In this document: positions 18,221 to 33,570 of the stretch, in pieces
How the letters are laid out: each line of letters opens with the position of its first letter
Numbering within the stretch: position 1 is the stretch's first letter
From: Promethearchaeota archaeon
GTDB lineage: Archaea > Asgardarchaeota > Lokiarchaeia > Sigyniarchaeales > SOKP01
Length of the DNA: 64,000 nt
Assembly: GCA_019058365.1 (NCBI GenBank)
Contig: JAHPZE010000006.1
Coordinates: 110,080-174,079, forward strand
Direction: 5' to 3'
Program-made: the position numbers and the translations under genes
The notes under the pieces: model-generated
What the model was told of the DNA's origin: nothing
What the model saw: the letters and a program-made list of their open reading frames with translations, nothing else
Databases searched by the model: none

Positions 18221-19357
18221 TCAATCATCCTTACTTGGAATTTTCGGTAATTGTCTTCTACCACTTGGTTTTTTCGCTCTAGATTTTTCTAATATATCAA
18301 TTAAATCAGCTTTCTTTGTATTTATAGGTAAATCAATTTCTTTTTCTTCGGCATAAGCTTTAAGATCTTTTATAGTCATAGAATTAAAATCCGTTATCTC
18401 TTTAGGAGTTATAGTTTTCTTCATTGCATCTGGTTTAGTTGGCATTGGAGACAATCCTGAAGGAGATGTCTTTCTTGGAGCGTTATTTAATTTTTCTTCC
18501 TTTTCTAATACTTCAATAGCTTCCACAATTCCTTTCTTTTCGTCAAAATAAATTCTTAACACATGATTATCTAATTCTATCATTTCTTTTGGGACATTTT
18601 TAACTGGTTCCCAGTCGGTTTCTTCAACATTTTTTCCGAATACTTTAGCAATTTTTGAAACTGCAGCATAGAGTGTATAGCCCAAAATGAGATTTGTTCT
18701 TTTATAACCATCAGATACATCAGTTTTGAGAATTTTATCTTTTATTTTTTGTGCTTCTTCTCCTGATAATTCTATTGCTTTAGAAATTCTTGATGGTTTT
18801 ACCATTTCTGATCTTGGATATTGCGTCCTTGGTTTTGGTTTTAATGTACTCGAAGCGAAAGATGAAACTATTACTTCATTACTCGTATCTTGTAATGCTG
18901 GTGAGAAATACTCCTCTTCTGTCTGCAACTTAGTTGTTTTAGGAGCAACATCTGTAATAGGTGCTTGTTCCATTCTCTCCCGTTCAATATTTCGGACATA
19001 TCGCATATCTGCTAATCGTTCAGTTACTTCCATCGATTCTAATCTGAATGTATTTAAGAATTCTGAAGGTTCTTCTCCCGCATCTACAGAAATAATCTTA
19101 CAACGATGATATCTAGAATCGTTTATTAATTCTTCTTGAAGAGTTGCAGCTACTCTTGAACTGATAAATCTTTTTCGAACAGGTGATTTTGGACCTTTCC
19201 AAATGAAGATCCTTCGTAAATCTTCTCTTATTATTACTAAAACTTGTTCTGGATGCATATTTTCCTGAAGATGCTCTTCAGTTATGTCTAATTTTATCCT
19301 TTCTCCAGAATCGTCTAATTCATATACCATAAATGTCTCATATTCAGTCATTTTCAT
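18221..19357 (-). CDS. Gelsolin/villin-homology domain protein with a C-terminal SAP/HeH-like motif
   Basis: 378 aa. The N-terminal ~105 aa track the gelsolin repeat pattern: FMVYELDD...IKL, VLVIIRE, IFIWKGPKSPVRKRFISSRVAATLQEEL, KIISVDAGEEPSEFLNTF. The C-terminus has MTIKDLKAYAEEKEIDLPINTKKADLIDILEK and a basic tail. Confidence 0.7.
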   Translation of the reverse strand: MKMTEYETFMVYELDDSGERIKLDITEEHLQENMHPEQVLVIIREDLRRIFIWKGPKSPVRKRFISSRVAATLQEELINDSRYHRCKIISVDAGEEPSEFLNTFRLESMEVTERLADMRYVRNIERERMEQAPITDVAPKTTKLQTEEEYFSPALQDTSNEVIVSSFASSTLKPKPRTQYPRSEMVKPSRISKAIELSGEEAQKIKDKILKTDVSDGYKRTNLILGYTLYAAVSKIAKVFGKNVEETDWEPVKNVPKEMIELDNHVLRIYFDEKKGIVEAIEVLEKEEKLNNAPRKTSPSGLSPMPTKPDAMKKTITPKEITDFNSMTIKDLKAYAEEKEIDLPINTKKADLIDILEKSRAKKPSGRRQLPKIPSKDD

Positions 19358-19564: not shown

Positions 19565-20278
19565 TTATCGATCGTGAAGGACATTATCTATTGATAATAC
19601 AAATCCTACGAGAATTCTTCGATCAGTCTGATTATCAAGTATTCTTAAAGCATATGTATCTTTAAAATCTAAAAGCCCTCCAAGAAAGACATCTCTCCAT
19701 CGATCTGCTTTTTCTATTTCTGCTATAACATTACCAGTGGTTACATCATAAACCTTAAAACTCCACCCCATAAACTTGCCTTGAGCACGGAACCATTGGT
19801 TTCCTTGAGGGTCTTCAAGAAAAAACACAGGTCTGAAAAGGGATAAAATCTTCTTCTTAATTCGAGCTATAAGATTCCCTTGAGGATCTTTTAAATCTTG
19901 TGCTCCGCGAGCAGATACGAGTTTAGCATGAATCGTTGCTGCAATAGTTCCATCAACTTCTTGTAATTCAACTCTCCGTCGAATGCTTAAGATTATTCTT
20001 TTCATCTTCCCAATAATTTGGTTATGTTCGTCTAATATGTCGCCGCTTCCCCAATCCCAATACTTCTCCTTAAGGATATAGTAATTCCGGTTGATGTCAA
20101 ACAATCCTCCTGGTGGGCTTGAGGGATATACTCTAGGACCAGTTGGTCTTGTTTGTATAGGGGCAGTTTCTACTTGTCTAGTGCTAGCTGCTATAGGTGA
20201 ACCGCACTTTTCACAGAACCTTTGAGTTAAGTCGGAAATTTCCGCCCCGCAATTATTACAATATGGCACTTTTCTCAC
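19565..20278 (-). CDS. Zinc-ribbon plus LURP-one-related/scramblase-like (Tubby C-terminal-like) domain protein
   Basis: 237 aa. N-terminal CNNCGAEI...CEKCGSPI. The C-terminal ~170 aa have the repetitive beta-hairpin pattern of LOR/DUF567 proteins (YYILKEKYWDWGS.DILDE.. , FKVYDVTTGNVIAEIEK). Confidence 0.6.
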   Translation of the reverse strand: MRKVPYCNNCGAEISDLTQRFCEKCGSPIAASTRQVETAPIQTRPTGPRVYPSSPPGGLFDINRNYYILKEKYWDWGSGDILDEHNQIIGKMKRIILSIRRRVELQEVDGTIAATIHAKLVSARGAQDLKDPQGNLIARIKKKILSLFRPVFFLEDPQGNQWFRAQGKFMGWSFKVYDVTTGNVIAEIEKADRWRDVFLGGLLDFKDTYALRILDNQTDRRILVGFVLSIDNVLHDR

Positions 20279-21231: not shown

Positions 21232-23256
21232 CTAGAATATCTTCTTTTTCCAGTTTTCAATACTTTCGATGATTTCTTTTTTGTCATTCTCATCTAGTAA
21301 TAAAAACTTTTCCTTGTACTTATTTATCGTACTTCTAACACTATGTAAGGTTACTGAAAACCCTTTTTTTTCTAGAATTAAATCAGCAATATCCTGTAAT
21401 TCTTTACCAAATGCATCCCCTTTGAGACTACCAAGTTTATCAATTAAATGATCGAAAGCAGTATTTATCTGTATTCCTGCTTCGTCACCTGCTTTAGGTT
21501 GTGCTGCTGTTAAAAACTCAATTTTTTCTTGGAGTTTCTGCTTTAAATCAGTAATTTTGGGTGAGGAATAAGATGGAACTGGGGTTTGTGAAGGTGAAAT
21601 CTCCGTAGATCTAATACTCTCTTTTGGAATTTCTTGAATTTGACTTGGTATTGGAATTGTTGGTTTACTTTCAATTTTGGTTGATTTCAGATCTCCTTTA
21701 ATCGATTGAAATTTTGCGGGAATTATAGGTTTTGCAGCAGTAAATGATTTAATAGGTGTAGTTGTCTTAGTTGCTTGTGCTTTTGTTATTTGAGTAGCAT
21801 GAAAAGAATCAGTATAAGCTTCTTCCCATATGTTTTTTATCAACGGATCTAATAACTTTATTAATGGTTTAAATGAAGTTCCGATTCCAATAAAATCATC
21901 TAAAGAATTATTTGAATCTTGGATTACTCCCATTATGAATATATCATTATCACCTTTTAAAATAATAATATTATCATTTTGATAAGTTCTATATACTATA
22001 TTTTTAATATCATTAAAGCTCTTAACAGTACTATTTGTATGAGCTTCTGAAGAAGCGATTTTTATTTTTAGATTACTAGCAATTTTATCAAATTGCTCAA
22101 GTGTTAAATGGTTTTCAATATGGGGGATAATTAACGTAAGAGTTTCTTGAGAATTTATAATAAGATTGTGGATTGATTCATTTACATTAGTGATACTATT
22201 TATTATCCAAACATTATTGAATAGTTGCTTATCAATCCTATTCATTTCTTTAAGATAATGCTTCATTAAGTCTTCGACAGGTTTATTTAGGTTTGAAACT
22301 TGATTAATTGAATTCTGAACAATGAGATTTAAACTTTCTTTGATTCTAGCTTCCAGATTCTCAACAGCAGGTAAAAGTTCCTCTTGGTTTTCTTTAAGTA
22401 ATTCATATATTTTATTCATTTTAGATTCAAAATTACTCAACATATTCAATAAAAGAATTTTAAAGTCATTTCGGTACTGAAATATAGAGTCTGTAGTATT
22501 TTGCATTTGTTCAGCTAAACCACCAAATTCTTTTTCAATTAATTCATGCAAATTATTACTAAATTCTCCTATTATTTTATCTAATTTCTCTTTGAATGAC
22601 TTTTCCACAGCAGCAAGAATCTCTTCTTTATGTTTTTTAAATTCCATGGAATTAATGTTCTTAATTATATCAATTTTAAGAGTATTAATTGTTTTAATTA
22701 AATCAGCAAATTGAGTTTGCGTAATACTCTTAATATCTTGACGGAGATCAGAGAGAATTTTATTAATTTTTTTTAATTCTTCCATTCCCTCAACAATATC
22801 TTCTACTTCTTGTTTTTGAATAATGGAATCCTCTTCAATATCTTTTTTAACTGCTTGAAAAGCGTTTACTATTGAATCTAGCTCAATTACCTTATTTTCT
22901 TGAAAAATAGTTAATAAGGAATTAACCATTAAGTCATAAATTGATTTTTTGATTGTAGGTAAATTTGCTTCAATATTATCATAATAATTGAGAATTGGAG
23001 AAATTGGCGGTAATGGTGAATAGTGTATTATTTGTTCTTTTTTCTTAGGCTTTTGTTGAATGAGCAAGCCAGCGTCTAAAAGTCCTTTTATGCTTGTATT
23101 AAATTCTTCTGGAGTTGCGTTAGGTATAAGAGTATATAATTCATAAAACGATAAAGGAAATTTACCTAATGATTTAAGATAAATCTCCACGGCATATTCG
23201 GGGAGTTGCATTTTTCTTAAAAACTCTTCCATTAGTTTTTCACCAAATTCTTTCAT
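21232..23256 (-). CDS. TrmB-like wHTH protein with a long coiled-coil insert and Pro/Thr/Ser-rich linker
   Basis: 674 aa. N-terminal LPEYAVEIYLKSLGKFPLSFYELYTL...LLDAGLL (TrmB HTH pattern). About 240 aa of heptad-like helical sequence. A TrmB_C-like block lies around IIILKGDNDIFIMGVIQD. Confidence 0.55.
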   Translation of the reverse strand: MKEFGEKLMEEFLRKMQLPEYAVEIYLKSLGKFPLSFYELYTLIPNATPEEFNTSIKGLLDAGLLIQQKPKKKEQIIHYSPLPPISPILNYYDNIEANLPTIKKSIYDLMVNSLLTIFQENKVIELDSIVNAFQAVKKDIEEDSIIQKQEVEDIVEGMEELKKINKILSDLRQDIKSITQTQFADLIKTINTLKIDIIKNINSMEFKKHKEEILAAVEKSFKEKLDKIIGEFSNNLHELIEKEFGGLAEQMQNTTDSIFQYRNDFKILLLNMLSNFESKMNKIYELLKENQEELLPAVENLEARIKESLNLIVQNSINQVSNLNKPVEDLMKHYLKEMNRIDKQLFNNVWIINSITNVNESIHNLIINSQETLTLIIPHIENHLTLEQFDKIASNLKIKIASSEAHTNSTVKSFNDIKNIVYRTYQNDNIIILKGDNDIFIMGVIQDSNNSLDDFIGIGTSFKPLIKLLDPLIKNIWEEAYTDSFHATQITKAQATKTTTPIKSFTAAKPIIPAKFQSIKGDLKSTKIESKPTIPIPSQIQEIPKESIRSTEISPSQTPVPSYSSPKITDLKQKLQEKIEFLTAAQPKAGDEAGIQINTAFDHLIDKLGSLKGDAFGKELQDIADLILEKKGFSVTLHSVRSTINKYKEKFLLLDENDKKEIIESIENWKKKIF

Positions 23257-23408
23257 ATGATTCTTATTAATAATAGAGATACTTACCGAACTTATATAAT
23301 CTTTTAGAATTAAAGAATCTTTTTTTAAAAATTAAAATATTTAAGGAGGCTTTAACATTATAATCATTAATAATATTATAGATACTCACCGAAATTCATA
23401 AAACAGAT

Positions 23409-24749
23409 GTGGAAAAAATGACAGAGGATATATATTTTTACTTAGATCTTACTAAAGATTTATTGAGAAAAAAAGAGATCATAAAAACAATTAAATATTA
23501 CATTGAGGAAAAAAATAAAGCAAACTTAAAAGGTCACTATTCTCTCTTGATTTTTCAAGAAGAGGGAAATCCAGTCTTTTTAACGGATAAAAAAGATTCT
23601 GATATAATTGCCAACTCAATTGAAGAAAATTGGAATACTCGTCCAAAAGATAAAAGTTATTTTGAAAATGGGTTATTTTACATTTTTTCTTATATTGCTG
23701 AGACTGTGAGAAAAAAATCCAAATTTAATAGAATTATAGTTATTACAGATACGCCATCCGACTTATCTGAAGAATATCAAGAGGCTCTATTTAATTTAGT
23801 ATCAAAGATAAAGAATTTTCCCACATTTATAGATATTATTAGAGTATCCAAAGAGGGCGAACGCTTTTTTAAAGATGATGTAAAATTGAATATGCTTGCA
23901 AGTGACACTAAGGGAGGAATTTTTTATATTCAGGACAGAAAAGGCTTCACTGATGTGATTAAGAAACTTGTAAAGACTAAACAATTTGTAACTACATTTG
24001 AAGATCAACCTGATCTTATTAGAATAAGCAAAGAAGATTATGCTTTCTACAGTCAATTAGCAAAATCCTTAATAAAATCTAGTGAATTAAATTTAGTATG
24101 TCATTTTTGTAATGAAGAAGTATGTCCCGTTTGTATGGATGTTCATGATACTCCGTTGATTTGTGAAGACTGTAATACAAGTTTTCATCATTGTTGTATT
24201 ACCAATTATGTTATAAATCATAATATTGGTATACCTCATATTTTTCGTTGTCCCAATAACGAATGTGATGTGCTTCTTAAAATAGATGAAGATGAGATAA
24301 TTGAAGTATCAGGAGAAGTAGAAGTAGGAACGGTAAAGGAATATTTAGAAGAAGAACTACTTCAAGAGTCATTAGAAGAAATTCCCGAAGAAGAAGAACC
24401 TAGTTCTATTACACCTACTCTACAAAAAATAGAAACTCCGCCAGTAAAAGAAAAAAGTATCTCTGGAGCAAAACAAGTCACAACCATTAGAATTGGTGGA
24501 TTTTTTGGAAAAGTCTATACCGTAAAAAAAATGGGAGATAAAATTGTGTACGAGAAGTCTACACAGCCAACTTTTAAACCAAGTGCTGAAACTTCAAAAA
24601 GAGGAGAATTTATACTAAAAGATACTATAAAACTTACGAGTGAAAAAGCGAGAAAGAAACCAAAGTTTATTATTTGTCCTCAATGTGGAACTCAAAATGA
24701 TTCTACTCACACCTCGTGTTCTAATTGTGGAAATAAATTATCATATTAA
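23409..24749 (+). CDS. vWA-like (MIDAS-less) domain + C4HC3 cross-brace zinc finger + C-terminal zinc ribbon protein, paralog 1
   Basis: 446 aa (ATG at 23418 is an alternative start). vWA-like strands IYFYLDL, LLIFQ, RIIVITDTPSD, FIDIIRV, GGIFYIQD. Finger CHFCNEEVCPVCx9CEDCx4HHCCx~19CPNNEC. Also RIGGFFGK and a terminal CPQCG...CSNCG. Confidence 0.6.
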   Translation: MEKMTEDIYFYLDLTKDLLRKKEIIKTIKYYIEEKNKANLKGHYSLLIFQEEGNPVFLTDKKDSDIIANSIEENWNTRPKDKSYFENGLFYIFSYIAETVRKKSKFNRIIVITDTPSDLSEEYQEALFNLVSKIKNFPTFIDIIRVSKEGERFFKDDVKLNMLASDTKGGIFYIQDRKGFTDVIKKLVKTKQFVTTFEDQPDLIRISKEDYAFYSQLAKSLIKSSELNLVCHFCNEEVCPVCMDVHDTPLICEDCNTSFHHCCITNYVINHNIGIPHIFRCPNNECDVLLKIDEDEIIEVSGEVEVGTVKEYLEEELLQESLEEIPEEEEPSSITPTLQKIETPPVKEKSISGAKQVTTIRIGGFFGKVYTVKKMGDKIVYEKSTQPTFKPSAETSKRGEFILKDTIKLTSEKARKKPKFIICPQCGTQNDSTHTSCSNCGNKLSY

Positions 24750-24834
24750 GAAAAAAGCGAAGTTCTATAGTATTTTTATAACATATTCTTTTAATAAAGA
24801 AAAAGTAAATCACAATATTGTTAAAAGAAAAATA

Positions 24835-24904
24835 ACTGATTCTAGTATTATCAATAAAAATAAATAAACTGAATCTACTAGTATTATCAATAAAAATAAA
24901 TAAA
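24835..24904. repeat. Imperfect tandem direct repeat (two units, 36-nt spacing) in the promoter region of paralog 2
   Basis: The identical 27-nt core CTAGTATTATCAATAAAAATAAATAAA occurs at 24842-24868 and 24878-24904. It ends 9 nt before the ATG at 24914. Confidence 0.85.
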
Positions 24905-24913
24905 TGTGCTAAA

Positions 24914-26218
24914 ATGTTACCACGATCTTCTAATACGGTAAATTCTGAGGAATTTATTTTTTATATAGACTTAATTACTGATTTCTTGAAAAAGAAACCC
25001 TTAGTGAAAGCAATAAATGCTTTTATAAAAGAAAAAGATAAATTTAATGTTTTAACTTCTTACGGAGTGGTGCTTTTTCAAAAAGATGAGAATCCGATAA
25101 ATGTTTATGATTTAAAAGATGTGGAAACCGTTATAAATACCATAAACAATGGATGGGAAACACGAGAAATTGAGAAAAGTTATCTAGAAAATGGGTTATA
25201 TGAAATACTTGCATATATTTTTAGGAAAAGCCGTGATACAAGAAAGAATTATCGTATAATAATAATTTCAGATTCCCCTAGCAAATTATCTGAGGATTAT
25301 TATAATGCACTTTACGATTTACTCATTAAAGCAAAAAAATTTTCAGCTTTTATTGACATTATTCGTGTGGGAGAAGAGAAATTTTTTGAAGATGATGTAA
25401 AACTTAAAGTTATTTCAAGTGAAACTCATGGAGGCACATTCTATTGTCAAAGTGATAAACTTCTTCAAACTATCTTAGGTTCTTTGACTCAGAATAAAAA
25501 AGAATTCAAAGTTATACTCTCTGATGAGTCTGAACAAATTTTAAAAGAAGATCAAGTTTTTTATGAACGATTGGCCGTAGATCTCATTAGTCTCTCTACA
25601 GATGATCAAGAAATATGTGATATCTGCGAACAAGCGGTATGTCCTATTTGTGAAGCTCATTCTGATGAGATACATAAGTGTTTTAATTGTAACGCTAAAT
25701 TTCATAGTTGCTGTGCGGCAAAATATTCCCTTGTTAAGAATATAGGTTTTAAACATCTATTTAGGTGTCCGCAATGTGACACTCTTTTAAAACTAGATGA
25801 AGAATTTGTCAATATGATATATGATGAAGAGATAGAAGAAGGATTGCCTGAAATAGATTTGGGTGAACCTTTTTCAGAACCTGTCATGGAAGCGCTCGAA
25901 GTTCAAGAAGAACTAATAGAAAAAGTAGAGGAAGAGCCCGTTGAAATACCCGAATCAGCCATACCTACACCAACGAAAAAGGTACGGTTAGGAGGGTTCT
26001 TTGGGAAAGATGTTACAATTACAACTGGAACTACAAAAGGTGAAGTAGCATTAAAAGTTCCAGAAATTATTAAGTCACCAGAAGAACAAAATGTCTCGAT
26101 AACAAATTTAAGACCACCAAAAAGAAGAGGAACTGGAACAATACGACTTTGTAAAATTTGTGGAGCAACGATACATAATACCCGAAATTGTCCAACATGC
26201 GGGGCTAAAGCTGATTAG
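24914..26218 (+). CDS. vWA-like (MIDAS-less) domain + C4HC3 cross-brace zinc finger + C-terminal zinc ribbon protein, paralog 2
   Basis: 434 aa, colinear with the upstream gene: FIFYIDL, RIIIISDSPS, FIDIIRVGEE, GGTFYCQ. Finger CDICEQAVCPICx8CFNCx4HSCCx~19CPQC. Also RLGGFFGK and a terminal CKICG...CPTCG. Confidence 0.6.
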   Translation: MLPRSSNTVNSEEFIFYIDLITDFLKKKPLVKAINAFIKEKDKFNVLTSYGVVLFQKDENPINVYDLKDVETVINTINNGWETREIEKSYLENGLYEILAYIFRKSRDTRKNYRIIIISDSPSKLSEDYYNALYDLLIKAKKFSAFIDIIRVGEEKFFEDDVKLKVISSETHGGTFYCQSDKLLQTILGSLTQNKKEFKVILSDESEQILKEDQVFYERLAVDLISLSTDDQEICDICEQAVCPICEAHSDEIHKCFNCNAKFHSCCAAKYSLVKNIGFKHLFRCPQCDTLLKLDEEFVNMIYDEEIEEGLPEIDLGEPFSEPVMEALEVQEELIEKVEEEPVEIPESAIPTPTKKVRLGGFFGKDVTITTGTTKGEVALKVPEIIKSPEEQNVSITNLRPPKRRGTGTIRLCKICGATIHNTRNCPTCGAKAD

Positions 26219-29760: not shown

Positions 29761-32700
29761 ATGAGAAATAGAAAAAATTTTACTGTTATAATATTATTAT
29801 TGTTATTTCTTCAAACTTTTATTGGAATAATACCCCTTAATTTTCTTAATTTTAATGATAAAGAGAGAAATGAAACTCAAAAGATTGATCTTAAATATTC
29901 AGATATTATAATTGGAAACTACACAGTTCCAGGAGTTTCAAGTCCAGTTTCCCTAAATCACTTAATTAGAATAGGATTGCTAGATGATATGAATGATATT
30001 ACTGGCGATCACGCTTGGAAAGGAGCATTATTAGCTGCTAAACACATTAACGAGGCTGGTGGTATTGATATTTATGGGAATGGTACAAATCATTATATAG
30101 GTTTGACTGCTGAGGATACAGATGAAGCTAACATAGCTATGGATGTATCAAAGGGAGTAGCTGCTGCAAATAGAATGATAACATATAATAATCCCCATTT
30201 TATTATAGGAGGATATAGAGAAGAAGCTGTGTCAGCTTATCAGGAAGTTATAATGGATGCTCAAATCCCTTTTTTAAGTACTGGAGTTTCAACTGATATT
30301 TTCACTCAAAATGTCTTGAATGATTATGAACGCTATAAATATTTCTTTCGAATCATGCCAATGAATAGTACCTCACTTGGTACAGTACTTATTTATTATT
30401 TAGGTTTTCTTTGTACCAATTTAGGTGCAATTTATGGTGGCACATTGAATAAAGTAGCTATTTTTCGAGAAGATTTACCTTGGACAGAACCATTAAGTAA
30501 TGCTCTTAATTTAACTTTAGGAGCTTGGGGGATAACTGTTGTACAAGAAATCGCCTTTCCCATAACTGCAACTTCAACAGATTTTAATACCTATTGGAAT
30601 ATGATTGAAAGTGCGGGTGTTCAATTAACAATTCCGTTGGTAACGGAGGGTTCTGGTGCAATTAAAATGATACAACAATATAGGGCGGTAAAACCAAAAT
30701 GTCTCTTAGCAGGTATTAATCTACTTTCCCAATTAGATACTTATTGGGATTATACTGAAGGTGCATGTCAATATGAAATTACAATGCAAGCTATCCATAG
30801 AACCAATAAAACTTTCATGACAATCCCGTTCTGGGATAGTTTTGTTTCAGAATATAATATGGAGCCATTTTATACTGGAGTTGGATCCTATGATGCGATA
30901 CAATTATTAGCAGATGTTTGTGATGCGATAAATTCATTTAATTCAACTAACATTATTACAGCATTAGAGGGATTTAATAAAACTAACCCTTATGTAGGTA
31001 TTAGTGCTCAAATAGCCTTTACTAGTTCTCACGATTTGTTGGCAGGATATCCTTATGCTTCTACTCTTTTTACTCAATGGCAATTGGATGGAAAAAAAGT
31101 CACCATTCCTTCATTTGTCCCTTCAATCTACTCTGGATATTATCCAAGTTCTCTTTCCACAGGTCAAATTTCAATTCCGTACTGGGGCATTAATAATCTT
31201 GTAGCAGCACAGGACTTACCGGGAGATTTCATTCTAAATGATACTGCTGACTTCCAAGATAGGGATGGTAACTTTAATTTGACTTGGACGAACTCTACTG
31301 GTGCCGATAATTATTCTGTATACATGCATGACAAGTCTATTACTTACATAAACGATAACCTTGAACTATTAGCTGATCATAATGCACATTCTTCTTATCA
31401 AATTTCAGGATTAAAAACTGGAAAGTATTATTTTGTTGTAGTGGCGTATAATGGAACCGGTGAAAAATTGTCGAATAATGATGTAATAAATGTAGAACGT
31501 CCTAGGCCAGGAAATTTCACCCTAACTAGTGATGCTGGTAACCCAGATACCGATGGTTCTTTTAATTTGACTTGGACTGATTCAGAAGGAGTAGATAATT
31601 ATTCTATATTTACTTATAATCATTTCATTACTGAGATTAATGAAAGTGTCACTATCCTTGCAAATCAAACAGCAACCTCACCCTTTCCAATCACAGGGTT
31701 ATCAAGCGGAAATTATTATTTCGTAGTTATAGCATACAATGCAACTGGAGAAACGATATCCAATAACGTTAATGTAACAGTAAAGATACCTCCGGGACAA
31801 TTTACATTATCTTCAGATGCTTATACTCCTTTTGATACCGATGGAGCTTTTAACCTTACTTGGACAGAGTCAACTGTGGCTGATAATTATTCTGTTTATC
31901 AGTATTCCCGATATATTACCGTTATAAATGACAGTCTCATTCCTCTTGAGATCGCAACAAGTAATACATCATTCCAGATTACTTATTTGCCAAGTGGAAC
32001 TTATTATTTTATTGTTATGGCAAATAACAGTTATGGCTATAATCTTTCGAATTGTATTAATATAACTATTCAAATTTATGATGAATTAAGTGGTTATTGG
32101 ATATTAAACCCATTTCTTATTGATAATACTGGTGTTGGTGATTATACTTGGTTGGAAGTTGCAGCCTTACCATGGTGTAGTGGTTCTGGAACATCAGTTG
32201 CCCCTTATATAATAGAAGCTATTAAAATTAATGGGCAAAATTCTGGTAGTTGTATTATAGTTCGAAACTCTAGTGTTTACTTTAAATTAAGAAATTGCTC
32301 ATGTTATAATTCTGGTAATGCCCTAAATGACGCGGGAATTAAATTAATTAATTTAACAAATGGAATTCTAAAATATATTAATTGTTCTTTTAACGATGGA
32401 AATGGAATTCTTTTAGACCTATGTCAAAATGTAACCATAACGAGTAGCACTGTTAATAATAATAGTCTAAACGGCATTAAGTTAATAGATAGTGATTACA
32501 TAAATATTTCGGATAACATGGATACAATTAATTGGAATAGCGAGTATGGCATTTCTTTAGAACATAGCGATTATAATGAGATTAGGGGAAATATGATAAA
32601 TTATAATACAATTGGAGTTTACCTTTATGAATCTAACTATAATACTATAACAGATAATGATTTAACAAATAATGATCAACCCTATGAACAAGTAGGTAGT

Positions 32701-33570
32701 ATTGGAAATATTATTCATAGTAATCTTGGTGTATCGGAGGAAACACCATTTCCTTTTGATATTTTAATTATCGTTCTGATAATTGGATTAGTAGTTGTTG
32801 GAGTTGTAGGTGCTGTATTAATAGTAAAGAAGAGAACTTCTACATCCGGATTGAAGAAAAAAGAAATAAGTGAGAAAAAAAGACTAAAAATAAGAAGAAA
32901 ACTTGAAGCAAAATTAATTTTTGTTGATGATCTCATAAAGGAGAGAAATATAAAATCGGCTTATAAAAATTTAGGTAAAATACAAGATACAGCTGATCAA
33001 TATGAATTCTTTGGTATATTTAATGAAGCAACGGAAAAAATTGAATATTGTAAGGATATTCAACAAGGAATTTATGAAGAAGCTAAGAGGGAGTCTGTAA
33101 TTACTCCTTTAGTATCAGAAAGCTTTGAAAAAGAAACTCAGATCGCACCCGTATCAAAAAAAGTAGAAGAACCAACGCACAATATCTTTATAAGTTATTC
33201 TACTTTAGACGCAGAATATTTTCAAATAAATAAAATTGTGAAAAAGCTTAAAAAATATCCTGAAATTGAGAACGTCCTATACTGGGAAAGGGATAGTAAA
33301 GAAAATATAGTTGAATTTATGGATAGAACTCTGAAAGAAAGTGATGTTTTTATCCTCTTTTGCAGTGAAAGATCGCTGAATTCTGCAGCTGTAAGTGATG
33401 AGTGGCAGGCAGCGTTTCAACGTAGAAAAAAAGGGTTAATTAAAATGATTCCTGTTTATGAAGATGAAAAATATGTTCCCCCAATTTTAGGCCATTTATT
33501 AAATGTGAAGTATACAAAAGATGATTTTGATAGTTTTATTGAGAAACTTCATCGAGAAATCTTGAGATGA
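29761..33570 (+). CDS. Single-pass membrane receptor-like protein: signal anchor, PBP1/ANF-receptor-like ligand-binding domain, 3 FN3-like repeats, parallel beta-helix repeats, TM, helical module, cytoplasmic TIR domain
   Basis: 1269 aa. LivK/ANF-receptor pattern (IRIGLLDDM..G..AWKGALLAAKHINEAGGI..., FIIGGY, YFFRIMP). Three ~95-aa repeats. PbH1-like NxIxxN repeats. TM DILIIVLIIGLVVVGVVGAVLIV, then KKR. TIR-like HNIFISYS...DVFILFCSERSLNSAAVSDEWQAAF. Many N-x-S/T sequons in the ectodomain. Confidence 0.75.
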   Translation: MRNRKNFTVIILLLLFLQTFIGIIPLNFLNFNDKERNETQKIDLKYSDIIIGNYTVPGVSSPVSLNHLIRIGLLDDMNDITGDHAWKGALLAAKHINEAGGIDIYGNGTNHYIGLTAEDTDEANIAMDVSKGVAAANRMITYNNPHFIIGGYREEAVSAYQEVIMDAQIPFLSTGVSTDIFTQNVLNDYERYKYFFRIMPMNSTSLGTVLIYYLGFLCTNLGAIYGGTLNKVAIFREDLPWTEPLSNALNLTLGAWGITVVQEIAFPITATSTDFNTYWNMIESAGVQLTIPLVTEGSGAIKMIQQYRAVKPKCLLAGINLLSQLDTYWDYTEGACQYEITMQAIHRTNKTFMTIPFWDSFVSEYNMEPFYTGVGSYDAIQLLADVCDAINSFNSTNIITALEGFNKTNPYVGISAQIAFTSSHDLLAGYPYASTLFTQWQLDGKKVTIPSFVPSIYSGYYPSSLSTGQISIPYWGINNLVAAQDLPGDFILNDTADFQDRDGNFNLTWTNSTGADNYSVYMHDKSITYINDNLELLADHNAHSSYQISGLKTGKYYFVVVAYNGTGEKLSNNDVINVERPRPGNFTLTSDAGNPDTDGSFNLTWTDSEGVDNYSIFTYNHFITEINESVTILANQTATSPFPITGLSSGNYYFVVIAYNATGETISNNVNVTVKIPPGQFTLSSDAYTPFDTDGAFNLTWTESTVADNYSVYQYSRYITVINDSLIPLEIATSNTSFQITYLPSGTYYFIVMANNSYGYNLSNCINITIQIYDELSGYWILNPFLIDNTGVGDYTWLEVAALPWCSGSGTSVAPYIIEAIKINGQNSGSCIIVRNSSVYFKLRNCSCYNSGNALNDAGIKLINLTNGILKYINCSFNDGNGILLDLCQNVTITSSTVNNNSLNGIKLIDSDYINISDNMDTINWNSEYGISLEHSDYNEIRGNMINYNTIGVYLYESNYNTITDNDLTNNDQPYEQVGSIGNIIHSNLGVSEETPFPFDILIIVLIIGLVVVGVVGAVLIVKKRTSTSGLKKKEISEKKRLKIRRKLEAKLIFVDDLIKERNIKSAYKNLGKIQDTADQYEFFGIFNEATEKIEYCKDIQQGIYEEAKRESVITPLVSESFEKETQIAPVSKKVEEPTHNIFISYSTLDAEYFQINKIVKKLKKYPEIENVLYWERDSKENIVEFMDRTLKESDVFILFCSERSLNSAAVSDEWQAAFQRRKKGLIKMIPVYEDEKYVPPILGHLLNVKYTKDDFDSFIEKLHREILR
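31219..32076 (+). repeat. Three tandem coding repeats (288, 285, 285 nt), FN3/Ig-like modules
   Basis: Units start at 31219, 31507 and 31792. Shared pattern: PG.F.L..DA...D.DG.FNLTWT.S...DNYS.Y......I.....GLxxGxYYFVV.AYN..G...SN. Confidence 0.85.
33178..33567 (+). other. TIR-like domain (cytoplasmic C-terminus of the 1269-aa protein)
   Basis: IFISYS (beta-A), ENIVEFMDRTLKESDVFILFCSERSLNSAAVSDEWQAAF, with a conserved-position Glu in the S..V..EW context, then MIPVY. Fits the prokaryotic TIR_2 pattern. Confidence 0.65.

Follow-up and report, generated by a model that had tools for sequence, protein, structure and literature searches.

The subject of this report is a pair of genes lying side by side in a stretch of 64,000 nucleotides from a Promethearchaeota archaeon (assembly GCA_019058365.1, contig JAHPZE010000006.1, positions 110,080 to 174,079). 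That whole stretch, whose G+C content is approximately 30%, is called the window here, and positions are counted from its first letter. Gene A (23409..24749, plus strand) can be read as a protein of 446 amino acids from a GTG codon at 23409. Its paralog, gene B (24914..26218, plus strand), encodes 434 amino acids with the same architecture. In each, a domain of the vWA type is followed by a zinc finger of the RING/PHD class, an acidic linker, a short glycine- and phenylalanine-containing motif, and a terminal zinc ribbon. The true start of A is probably the ATG at 23418, which gives 443 amino acids, because an identical protein in the database has that length. An earlier prediction, made from the sequence alone, described two adjacent, co-oriented and colinear genes. 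Both open reading frames were found where it placed them, on the same strand, and their products align from end to end with 36% identity (E 3e-82).

The vWA domain of A covers about residues 5-190 (23421..23978, plus strand). Here, AlphaFold2 (AF2) was given full-length A with an alignment of 42 sequences. It returned an alternating strand/helix alpha/beta domain over residues 1-190, with values of the predicted local distance difference test (pLDDT) of 80-95; elsewhere in the model, the finger is fairly confident, the linker disordered, and the ribbon confident. When this model was compared with solved structures using Foldseek, it matched vWA domains with a probability of 1.0, and isolated vWA chains superposed upon it with TM scores of 0.7-0.75 and root-mean-square deviations (rmsd) of 3.3-3.9 Å. 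At the level of a predicted structure, then, the vWA fold that had been read from the strand pattern of A is established. Sequence models find it in B (Pfam VWA, E 0.005) and more readily in distant members of the family, which match VWA_2 at 1e-17 and VWA at 6e-16. The prediction was also right that the DxSxS signature of the metal ion-dependent adhesion site (MIDAS) is absent. In its place, A has D-L-T-K-D (from D13) and B has D-L-I-T-D, while A keeps D114 and D142 of the degenerate site.

Directly after this domain comes the finger, which in A runs from C231 to C286 (24099..24266, plus strand) and is recognized from the family alignment, from AF2, and from Pfam matches across the family. 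It is a cluster of eleven cysteine and histidine ligands with the pattern C231-x2-C234-x4-C239-x2-C242-x9-C252-x2-C255-x4-H260-x-C262-C263-x17-C281-x4-C286. In B (25616-25777, plus strand), the pattern is that of A, except for x2 in the last pair. Thus, the C4HC3 finger that was predicted is present, and its coordinates in A stand; in B, however, it begins at 25616 rather than 25615, and the spacings are x9 rather than x8/9 and x17 rather than approximately x19.

The register of the ligands was probably read one CxxC too late. In a family-wide alignment of 75 sequences, C231, C234, C252, C255, H260, C281 and C286 are invariant, and the position of C263 holds cysteine in 71 sequences and histidine in the other 4. 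C231 and C234 are the pair that had been set aside as an extra CxxC. Because they are invariant across the family, the true C4HC3 module would begin with them. This, in turn, leaves C239, C242 and C262, together with a conserved D247, as an insert in loop 1, found in the super-clade of A and B and in a few distant members. The insert may be a third zinc site. Three cysteine ligands are evident there, and D247 is perhaps the fourth.

The finger was also modeled separately, with AF2 applied to residues 200-300 of A and 76 sequences. The model has a mean pLDDT of 89.9 and a pTM of 0.80, and its elements occur in the order expected of RING and PHD fingers (knuckle, hairpin, helix, knuckle). Its Foldseek neighbors are nearly all RING, PHD or C1 domains, none of them significant (best E 0.14); the RINGs among them come from HOIL-1, Ring1B/Bmi1, Deltex, BRCA1/BARD1, Slx1 and SEA/GATOR2, and p44 is found there as well. 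The check that the prediction had set for itself, an interleaved cross-brace as against two independent ribbons, is passed by this model only indirectly.

Canonical RINGs contact their E2 enzymes through the residue two places after the first ligand (C1+2), the residue four places after the sixth (C6+4), and the residue following the seventh (C7). At C1+2, A has phenylalanine and B isoleucine, both hydrophobic. At C6+4, the family is aromatic, with tyrosine in 32 and tryptophan in 31 of the 75 sequences, and proline directly follows C7 in 36 of the 75. Judged by these residues, the finger has the E2-contact pattern of a RING.

A Pfam scan of 62 family members gave a mixed set of names for the finger: Prok-RING_1 in 28 members (best E 1.9e-6), PHD in 22 (5.3e-6), zf-RING_2 in 13 (8.7e-5) and C1_1 in 11 (4.1e-6). 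Neither A nor B matches Prok-RING_1 (PF14446), for which the Pfam cut-off is 29.1 bits; the members of a second tandem pair in the same genome, described below, score 21.8-22.2 bits, under that cut-off. A C4HC3 finger had been considered normally a eukaryotic feature. This view cannot be kept: prokaryotic RINGs with the C4HC3 arrangement have been described (PMC11354881), and 28 of the 62 members match a model of this kind. Both prokaryotic C4HC3 RINGs and RING E3 ligases in Asgard ubiquitin operons are, of course, already known (PMC11354881, PMC7159879).

Behind the finger, the three C-terminal elements that the prediction listed are all located in both proteins. The linker of A (24282..24488, plus strand) has 20 aspartates and glutamates against 5 lysines and arginines in 69 residues, is predicted to be disordered (pLDDT approximately 30), and is poorly conserved in an alignment of 42 orthologs of A and B; over both proteins, the linker is 64-69 residues long, of which 20-22 are acidic and 3-5 basic. 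The motif that follows reads RIGGFFGK in A (residues 361-368, 24489..24512, plus strand) and RLGGFFGK in B (residues 358-365, 25985-26008, plus strand). In A, a short beta-hairpin is predicted after it (residues 370-383), its strands modeled by AF2 with low confidence. The C-terminal ribbon of A has four cysteine ligands, C423, C426, C437 and C440 (24675..24728, plus strand; Pfam Zn_Ribbon_1, E 2.3e-5; pLDDT 75-82), and the corresponding CxxC...CxxC ribbon of B occupies residues 413-429 (26150-26200, plus strand). All 14 cysteines of A fall within the finger or the ribbon. Further, the 42 aligned orthologs show no variation at any zinc ligand or in the GGFFG core, so that this set of motifs is not a product of chance.

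Two other identities for the conserved motif were considered. A cleavage site of a pro-ubiquitin-like protein at R(I/L)GG was rejected, as no beta-grasp domain lies upstream of it. A PCNA-binding PIP box at GGFFGK was set aside, the resemblance being only a loose one. Direct searches with the whole proteins gave little more. NCBIfam had no match, and searches of PDB sequences with A, and with a profile of A and B, returned zinc-ribbon, TRIM-RING and PHD noise, with nothing significant.

The pair is not alone in its genome, which comprises 4.74 Mb in 54 contigs. Six family members were found there: two tandem pairs without a MIDAS, of which A and B are the first, and two singletons with one. 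The second pair (contig C16; 388 and 380 amino acids) has glycine at the first MIDAS position, a plain C4HC3 finger with tryptophan, and a ribbon, and has no GGFFGK motif. The singletons have lengths of 392 and 401 amino acids, and one lies on contig C26 (66612-67817), the other on C16; both have an intact MIDAS (D-T-S-R-S), and in both a second C4HC3 finger replaces the ribbon. That the MIDAS-less types occur in pairs and the MIDAS-bearing types singly in this genome fits the idea that the former are obligate hetero-oligomers.

A quick maximum-likelihood tree divides the family into four clades: the super-clade of A and B, a further MIDAS-less clade, the clade of MIDAS-bearing singletons, and that of the second pair. 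The database sequences that represent the family in the tree likewise have an intact MIDAS almost exclusively in the singleton clade. A and B themselves are distinct, well-supported and old sister groups within their super-clade, while the copies of the second pair are recent duplicates. Hundreds of orthologs of A (51-95% identical) are known, and those of B are 43-88% identical. All come from Promethearchaeota assemblies, the Loki-type Asgard archaea, and some carry NCBI names such as "RING finger protein" or "VWA domain-containing protein." Set against the 36% identity between A and B, these values indicate that the two paralogs are ancient and that each is strongly constrained on its own account.

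The distribution of the family was examined in 301 genomes of the phylum, 78 from the class of the window's organism and 223 from other classes. Strong matches are confined to that one class, where three of the four families sampled have them, at 3-7 copies per genome. Apparent members in other Asgard classes were rejected: the weak matches there are ordinary vWA proteins that have a MIDAS but no RING, or small RING tails of no relation to the family. In 67 of the 68 Promethearchaeota loci with enough sequence, B lies directly downstream of A.

Which solved proteins does this family resemble? The prediction had named p44/Ssl1 of TFIIH, Rpn10, and the trunk of Sec23/24. The first two of these hold up well. 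In the Foldseek comparison of A with the PDB, p44/Ssl1 stands at the top (7o4i_6, 9pd3_E, 8ebs_E, 6nmi_E; E approximately 2e-9 over approximately 350 aligned columns), followed by p34/Tfb4 (7o4k_4, 8ebt_F), and then by Rpn10 (8amz_W, 8jtl_A; E 5e-7), MERIT40 (6gvw) and integrin I domains. In E-value, p44 and p34 are ahead of Rpn10 by about 2-3 orders of magnitude. The rmsd of approximately 18 Å in the long alignments with p44 means that only the vWA domain superposes rigidly. A family-wide profile searched against PDB sequences places the same proteins in a different order: human Rpn10/PSMD4 over the whole vWA (E 2.8e-10), yeast Tfb4 (2.1e-7), the bacterial vWA protein 4rck (3.9e-7), MERIT40 over the N-terminal half of its vWA only (1.5e-6), and p44 (3.6e-5). 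The Sec23/24 trunk received no support and was dropped from consideration, being absent from the top 50 Foldseek matches listed.

Family models sharpen this picture for the singletons more than for A and B. Taken alone, A and B do not match the Pfam Ssl1 model (PF04056) at E <= 1, nor do they match Tfb4 or C1_4. C1_4 (PF07975) is likewise outside the 25 most frequent families listed for the 62 members, and is absent from scans of four family members at E <= 10. Both singletons, however, pass the Ssl1 cut-off with 36-40 bits against the 27 required. The singleton on contig C26, the only one queried against the PDB, has human p44 as its best sequence match (E 8e-7) and shares with it the motif D-x-S-R-x-M-x3-D-x2-P-N-R-x-T-C. 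The Ssl1 model matches 75 of the 78 sampled genomes of the class and none of the 223 from other classes, and none of 14 control genomes yields a match that passes its cut-off. By profile and by model, therefore, the vWA domain of this family belongs with the group of intracellular vWA domains, otherwise typical of eukaryotic complexes, that includes Rpn10, p44, p34 and MERIT40. The PDB is poor in prokaryotic vWA domains, of course, so these are the closest solved relatives, not necessarily the closest in nature.

The prediction had further proposed a role in a ubiquitin-like system. The genome does have the parts: two E2 genes of the UQ_con family (contig C45, 4476-4898; contig C34, 126802-127275) and several ubiquitin-like genes (contigs C12, C16 and C34). 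On contig C34, they form a cluster (124852-131123), where the E2 gene is accompanied by ubiquitin-like genes at 128741, 130663 and 130950. A role in a ubiquitin system is therefore possible. No gene of such a system lies near the pair. As a separate observation, contig C50 (4690-6207, plus strand) has an open reading frame of 579 amino acids with weak matches to UQ_con (E 1e-3) and to a RING region; it may be a fusion of an E2-like protein with a RING.

From these observations, we tentatively favor the view, which we hold with somewhat less than even confidence, that A and B together make up a heteromeric vWA-RING adaptor resembling a RING-type ligase for ubiquitin or a ubiquitin-like protein. 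Here, the vWA domains, having lost metal-dependent binding through the MIDAS, would act as docking surfaces, as they do in Rpn10, p44, p34 and MERIT40. Their partners would be the other subunit, a client protein, or both. The RING-like surface of the C4HC3 finger could recruit one of the genome's ubiquitin-charged E2 conjugates, and the region behind it, with its long acidic linker, GGFFGK motif and ribbon, would act as a flexible arm for reaching partners or substrates. The rationale for this view has several parts. The paralogs are ancient, separately constrained, and almost always adjacent; the MIDAS has been lost in the clades of tandem pairs; the finger has E2-contact residues of the RING type in a genome that has E2 and ubiquitin genes; and the vWA domain is of a type used for docking in ubiquitin-related complexes of eukaryotes. 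The architecture, folds, conservation, tandem arrangement and presence of E2 and ubiquitin genes in the genome are matters of observation, and it is from them that we infer heterodimerization, E2 binding and ligase activity.

Several observations weigh against this view. The isolated finger finds no significant structural match, and the RING-like fingers of its closest structural relatives, those of p44, are assembly modules. The residue after the eighth ligand is acidic (in A and B) or aromatic, not the arginine or lysine "linchpin" of many active RINGs, and a phenylalanine two residues ahead of the seventh ligand is a PHD-like feature. Nor does the genomic setting help. Genes for an E1, an E2, ubiquitin or a JAB protein are absent from the surroundings of all six family members, and the ubiquitin cluster on contig C34 has an open reading frame of its own, for 395 amino acids (124852-125082), with a weak match to a RING region.

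The main rival takes its lead from p44. In TFIIH, the RING of p44 binds the vWA domain of p34, and A and B might likewise form a non-catalytic scaffold, held together by contact between the finger of one protein and its partner's vWA domain. Such a pair would hold or regulate another enzyme, the archaeal XPD/XPB helicases being examples. It would be natural to expect this from a paralog pair in which each protein has a vWA domain and a zinc finger, as p44 and p34 do, from the position of these two proteins at the head of the Foldseek matches of full-length A, from the Tfb4 match of the family profile, and from the singletons, which pass the cut-off of a model specific enough to leave the control genomes empty and one of which has human p44 as its best match. 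Yet sequence searches link neither A nor B to Ssl1, Tfb4 or C1_4. With the family profile, Rpn10 outscores both p44 and p34, and the structural margin over Rpn10 comes from alignments in which the vWA alone superposes. The domains are also differently ordered, since p44 has vWA, a C4 finger and then a C1-like finger (PF07975), while A and B have vWA, RING, linker and ribbon. The single XPD gene of the genome lies on contig C2, near none of the six family genes, and the range of the family is limited to a single Asgard class. On balance, a scaffold of this kind is rather unlikely, although it is the alternative to be taken most seriously. Its historical extension is that the vWA-RING family of the Lokiarchaeia, with its Ssl1-like singletons and its MIDAS-less tandem pairs, would represent the archaeal stock from which p44, p34 and Rpn10 came, and that A and B would be a pre-eukaryotic heterodimer of the p44/p34 type, with the finger of one subunit clasping its partner's vWA. 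Were this so, the core scaffold of TFIIH, or a ubiquitin ligase ancestral to it, would predate eukaryotes. The restriction of the family to one class weakens the argument, however, because vertical ancestry to eukaryotes cannot then be assumed, and we regard it as improbable.

If the profile rather than the structure search is followed, the natural model is Rpn10. A receptor or shuttle of that kind would dock through its vWA domain on a proteasome-associated or Cdc48-type machine, and would use its flexible tail, through the zinc modules and the GGFFGK motif, to capture clients modified by a ubiquitin-like protein. Human Rpn10/PSMD4 is indeed the best profile match in the PDB, over its whole vWA, and in Rpn10 as in the A/B proteins, the MIDAS of the vWA is degenerate and a long disordered tail with short conserved motifs comes after the domain. 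Rpn10 has no RING, however, and the alignment of the 42 orthologs shows no conserved motif resembling a ubiquitin-interacting motif (UIM) in the linker. Nothing in the neighborhood of A and B points to the proteasome, and we know of no docking partners in archaea corresponding to those of Rpn10 in the 19S lid. A receptor of this type seems very improbable. We give as little credence to a reader of peptide, lipid or nucleic acid built on a PHD- or C1-like finger, which would serve as a regulatory or membrane-associated adaptor, possibly in small-GTPase signaling. The Pfam matches to PHD in 22 and to C1 in 11 of the 62 members speak for it, as do the phenylalanine placed two residues before the seventh ligand, the SEA/GATOR2 RINGs among the structural neighbors of the finger, and one singleton that lies head-to-head with a gene for an Arf/Rag-like GTPase. 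For A and B, however, none of these Pfam matches reaches significance; GTPase genes adjoin neither this pair nor the second one, and the residue pattern fits a RING better.

The genes that surround the pair have features of their own. Divergent from A lies a gene, here called U (21232..23256, minus strand), for a coiled-coil protein of 674 amino acids with no recognizable domain. It had been labeled TrmB-like, a label for which Pfam and searches of PDB sequences give no support, as neither finds a match. U stands head-to-head with A in all 67 eligible loci of the class. A block farther upstream, with genes for a CDP-alcohol transferase, a LOR-like protein and a gelsolin-like protein, is as well conserved as the U-A-B arrangement, which means that this synteny is no specific evidence of a functional link among the three. 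The neighbors of the second pair and of the singletons are unrelated to those of A and B. In the 152-nucleotide region between U and A, the motif GATACT(T/C)ACCGAA occurs twice (23278-23290 and 23381-23393), and is a candidate operator. Between A and B are two exact AT-rich direct repeats of 26-27 nucleotides (TAGTATTATCAATAAAAATAAATAAA; 24843-24868 and 24879-24904, plus strand), 36 nucleotides apart; the second ends 9 nucleotides ahead of the start codon of B. Together, the repeats may provide B with a promoter or operator of its own.

Within the upstream block, one protein of 378 amino acids (18221-19357, minus strand) has weak matches to a gelsolin repeat (E 1e-3) and to HeH/SAP/Rho_N (E 2e-4), and is found upstream of the pair throughout the class. 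Another (19565-20278, minus strand) fuses a zinc ribbon to a LURP-one-related (LOR), scramblase-like domain (LOR, E 4.6e-9), the two parts being separate genes in some relatives. On the other side of the pair, 29761-33570 encodes a receptor-like protein of 1269 amino acids with a periplasmic-binding domain, fn3 repeats, a NosD/beta-helix region, a transmembrane segment and a cytoplasmic TIR domain (TIR_2, E 9e-16). Just downstream of the second pair, on contig C16 (40230-40976, minus strand), is a membrane protein of 248 amino acids whose C-terminal half, judged by eye only, looks like the TIR domain of this 1269-residue protein. The GTPase-like gene on contig C26 (65181-66389, minus strand), which is head-to-head with the singleton there, encodes 402 amino acids with the Arf/Rag-like motifs GLDNGGKTS, WDLGGQ and SKSD and a long C-terminal extension; the singleton on contig C16 has no such neighbor.

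The Asgard archaea are, of course, the ground on which forerunners of eukaryotic machines are sought, and the A/B family is abundant and strongly conserved across one of their classes. If the pair is an E3, the archaeal ubiquitin toolkit gains a type of substrate adaptor encoded elsewhere than in the known ubiquitin operons; a scaffold like p44 and p34 would instead bear on the origin of TFIIH. It is therefore worthwhile to set the pair beside the systems that it most resembles. The p44/Ssl1 and p34/Tfb4 proteins of TFIIH are, like A and B, a pair of paralogs in which a vWA domain is followed by one or more zinc-binding fingers. The A/B pair differs from them in having a C4HC3 finger with a CxxC...C insert straight after the vWA domain, followed by the acidic linker, GGFFGK and the terminal ribbon. 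It differs also in its lack of a direct match to Ssl1, Tfb4 or C1_4, in the lack of linkage to XPD, and in its confinement to one Asgard class. Rpn10 shares with A and B a MIDAS-degenerate intracellular vWA domain and a flexible tail with short motifs, but it has UIMs, has neither RING nor ribbon, and is not encoded as a pair of paralogs. MERIT40/BABAM1, from the BRISC and BRCA1-A deubiquitinase complexes, likewise has an intracellular vWA domain used for docking; unlike A and B, it is devoid of zinc fingers, and its vWA aligns over the N-terminal half only.

Two further comparisons concern the finger more than the vWA domain. In plants, RGLG1 and RGLG2 join a vWA domain and a C-terminal RING in one chain and have proven E3 activity; they combine a copine-type vWA, in which the MIDAS is intact, with a RING of the canonical C3HC4/H2 type. 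Fingers of the Prok-RING_1 family (PF14446; Burroughs, Iyer and Aravind, 2011, as cited in PMC11354881 and PMC7159879) have C4HC3 ligands in a prokaryotic setting, as does the A/B family, 28 of whose 62 scanned members match that model. A and B differ in having no match to it themselves, and their genes lie outside ubiquitin-system neighborhoods. The literature that was searched contains no description of Asgard vWA-RING or p44-like proteins, nor of the A/B family, which is uncharacterized. C4HC3 RINGs in prokaryotes are known, as is the joining of a vWA domain to zinc fingers in p44.

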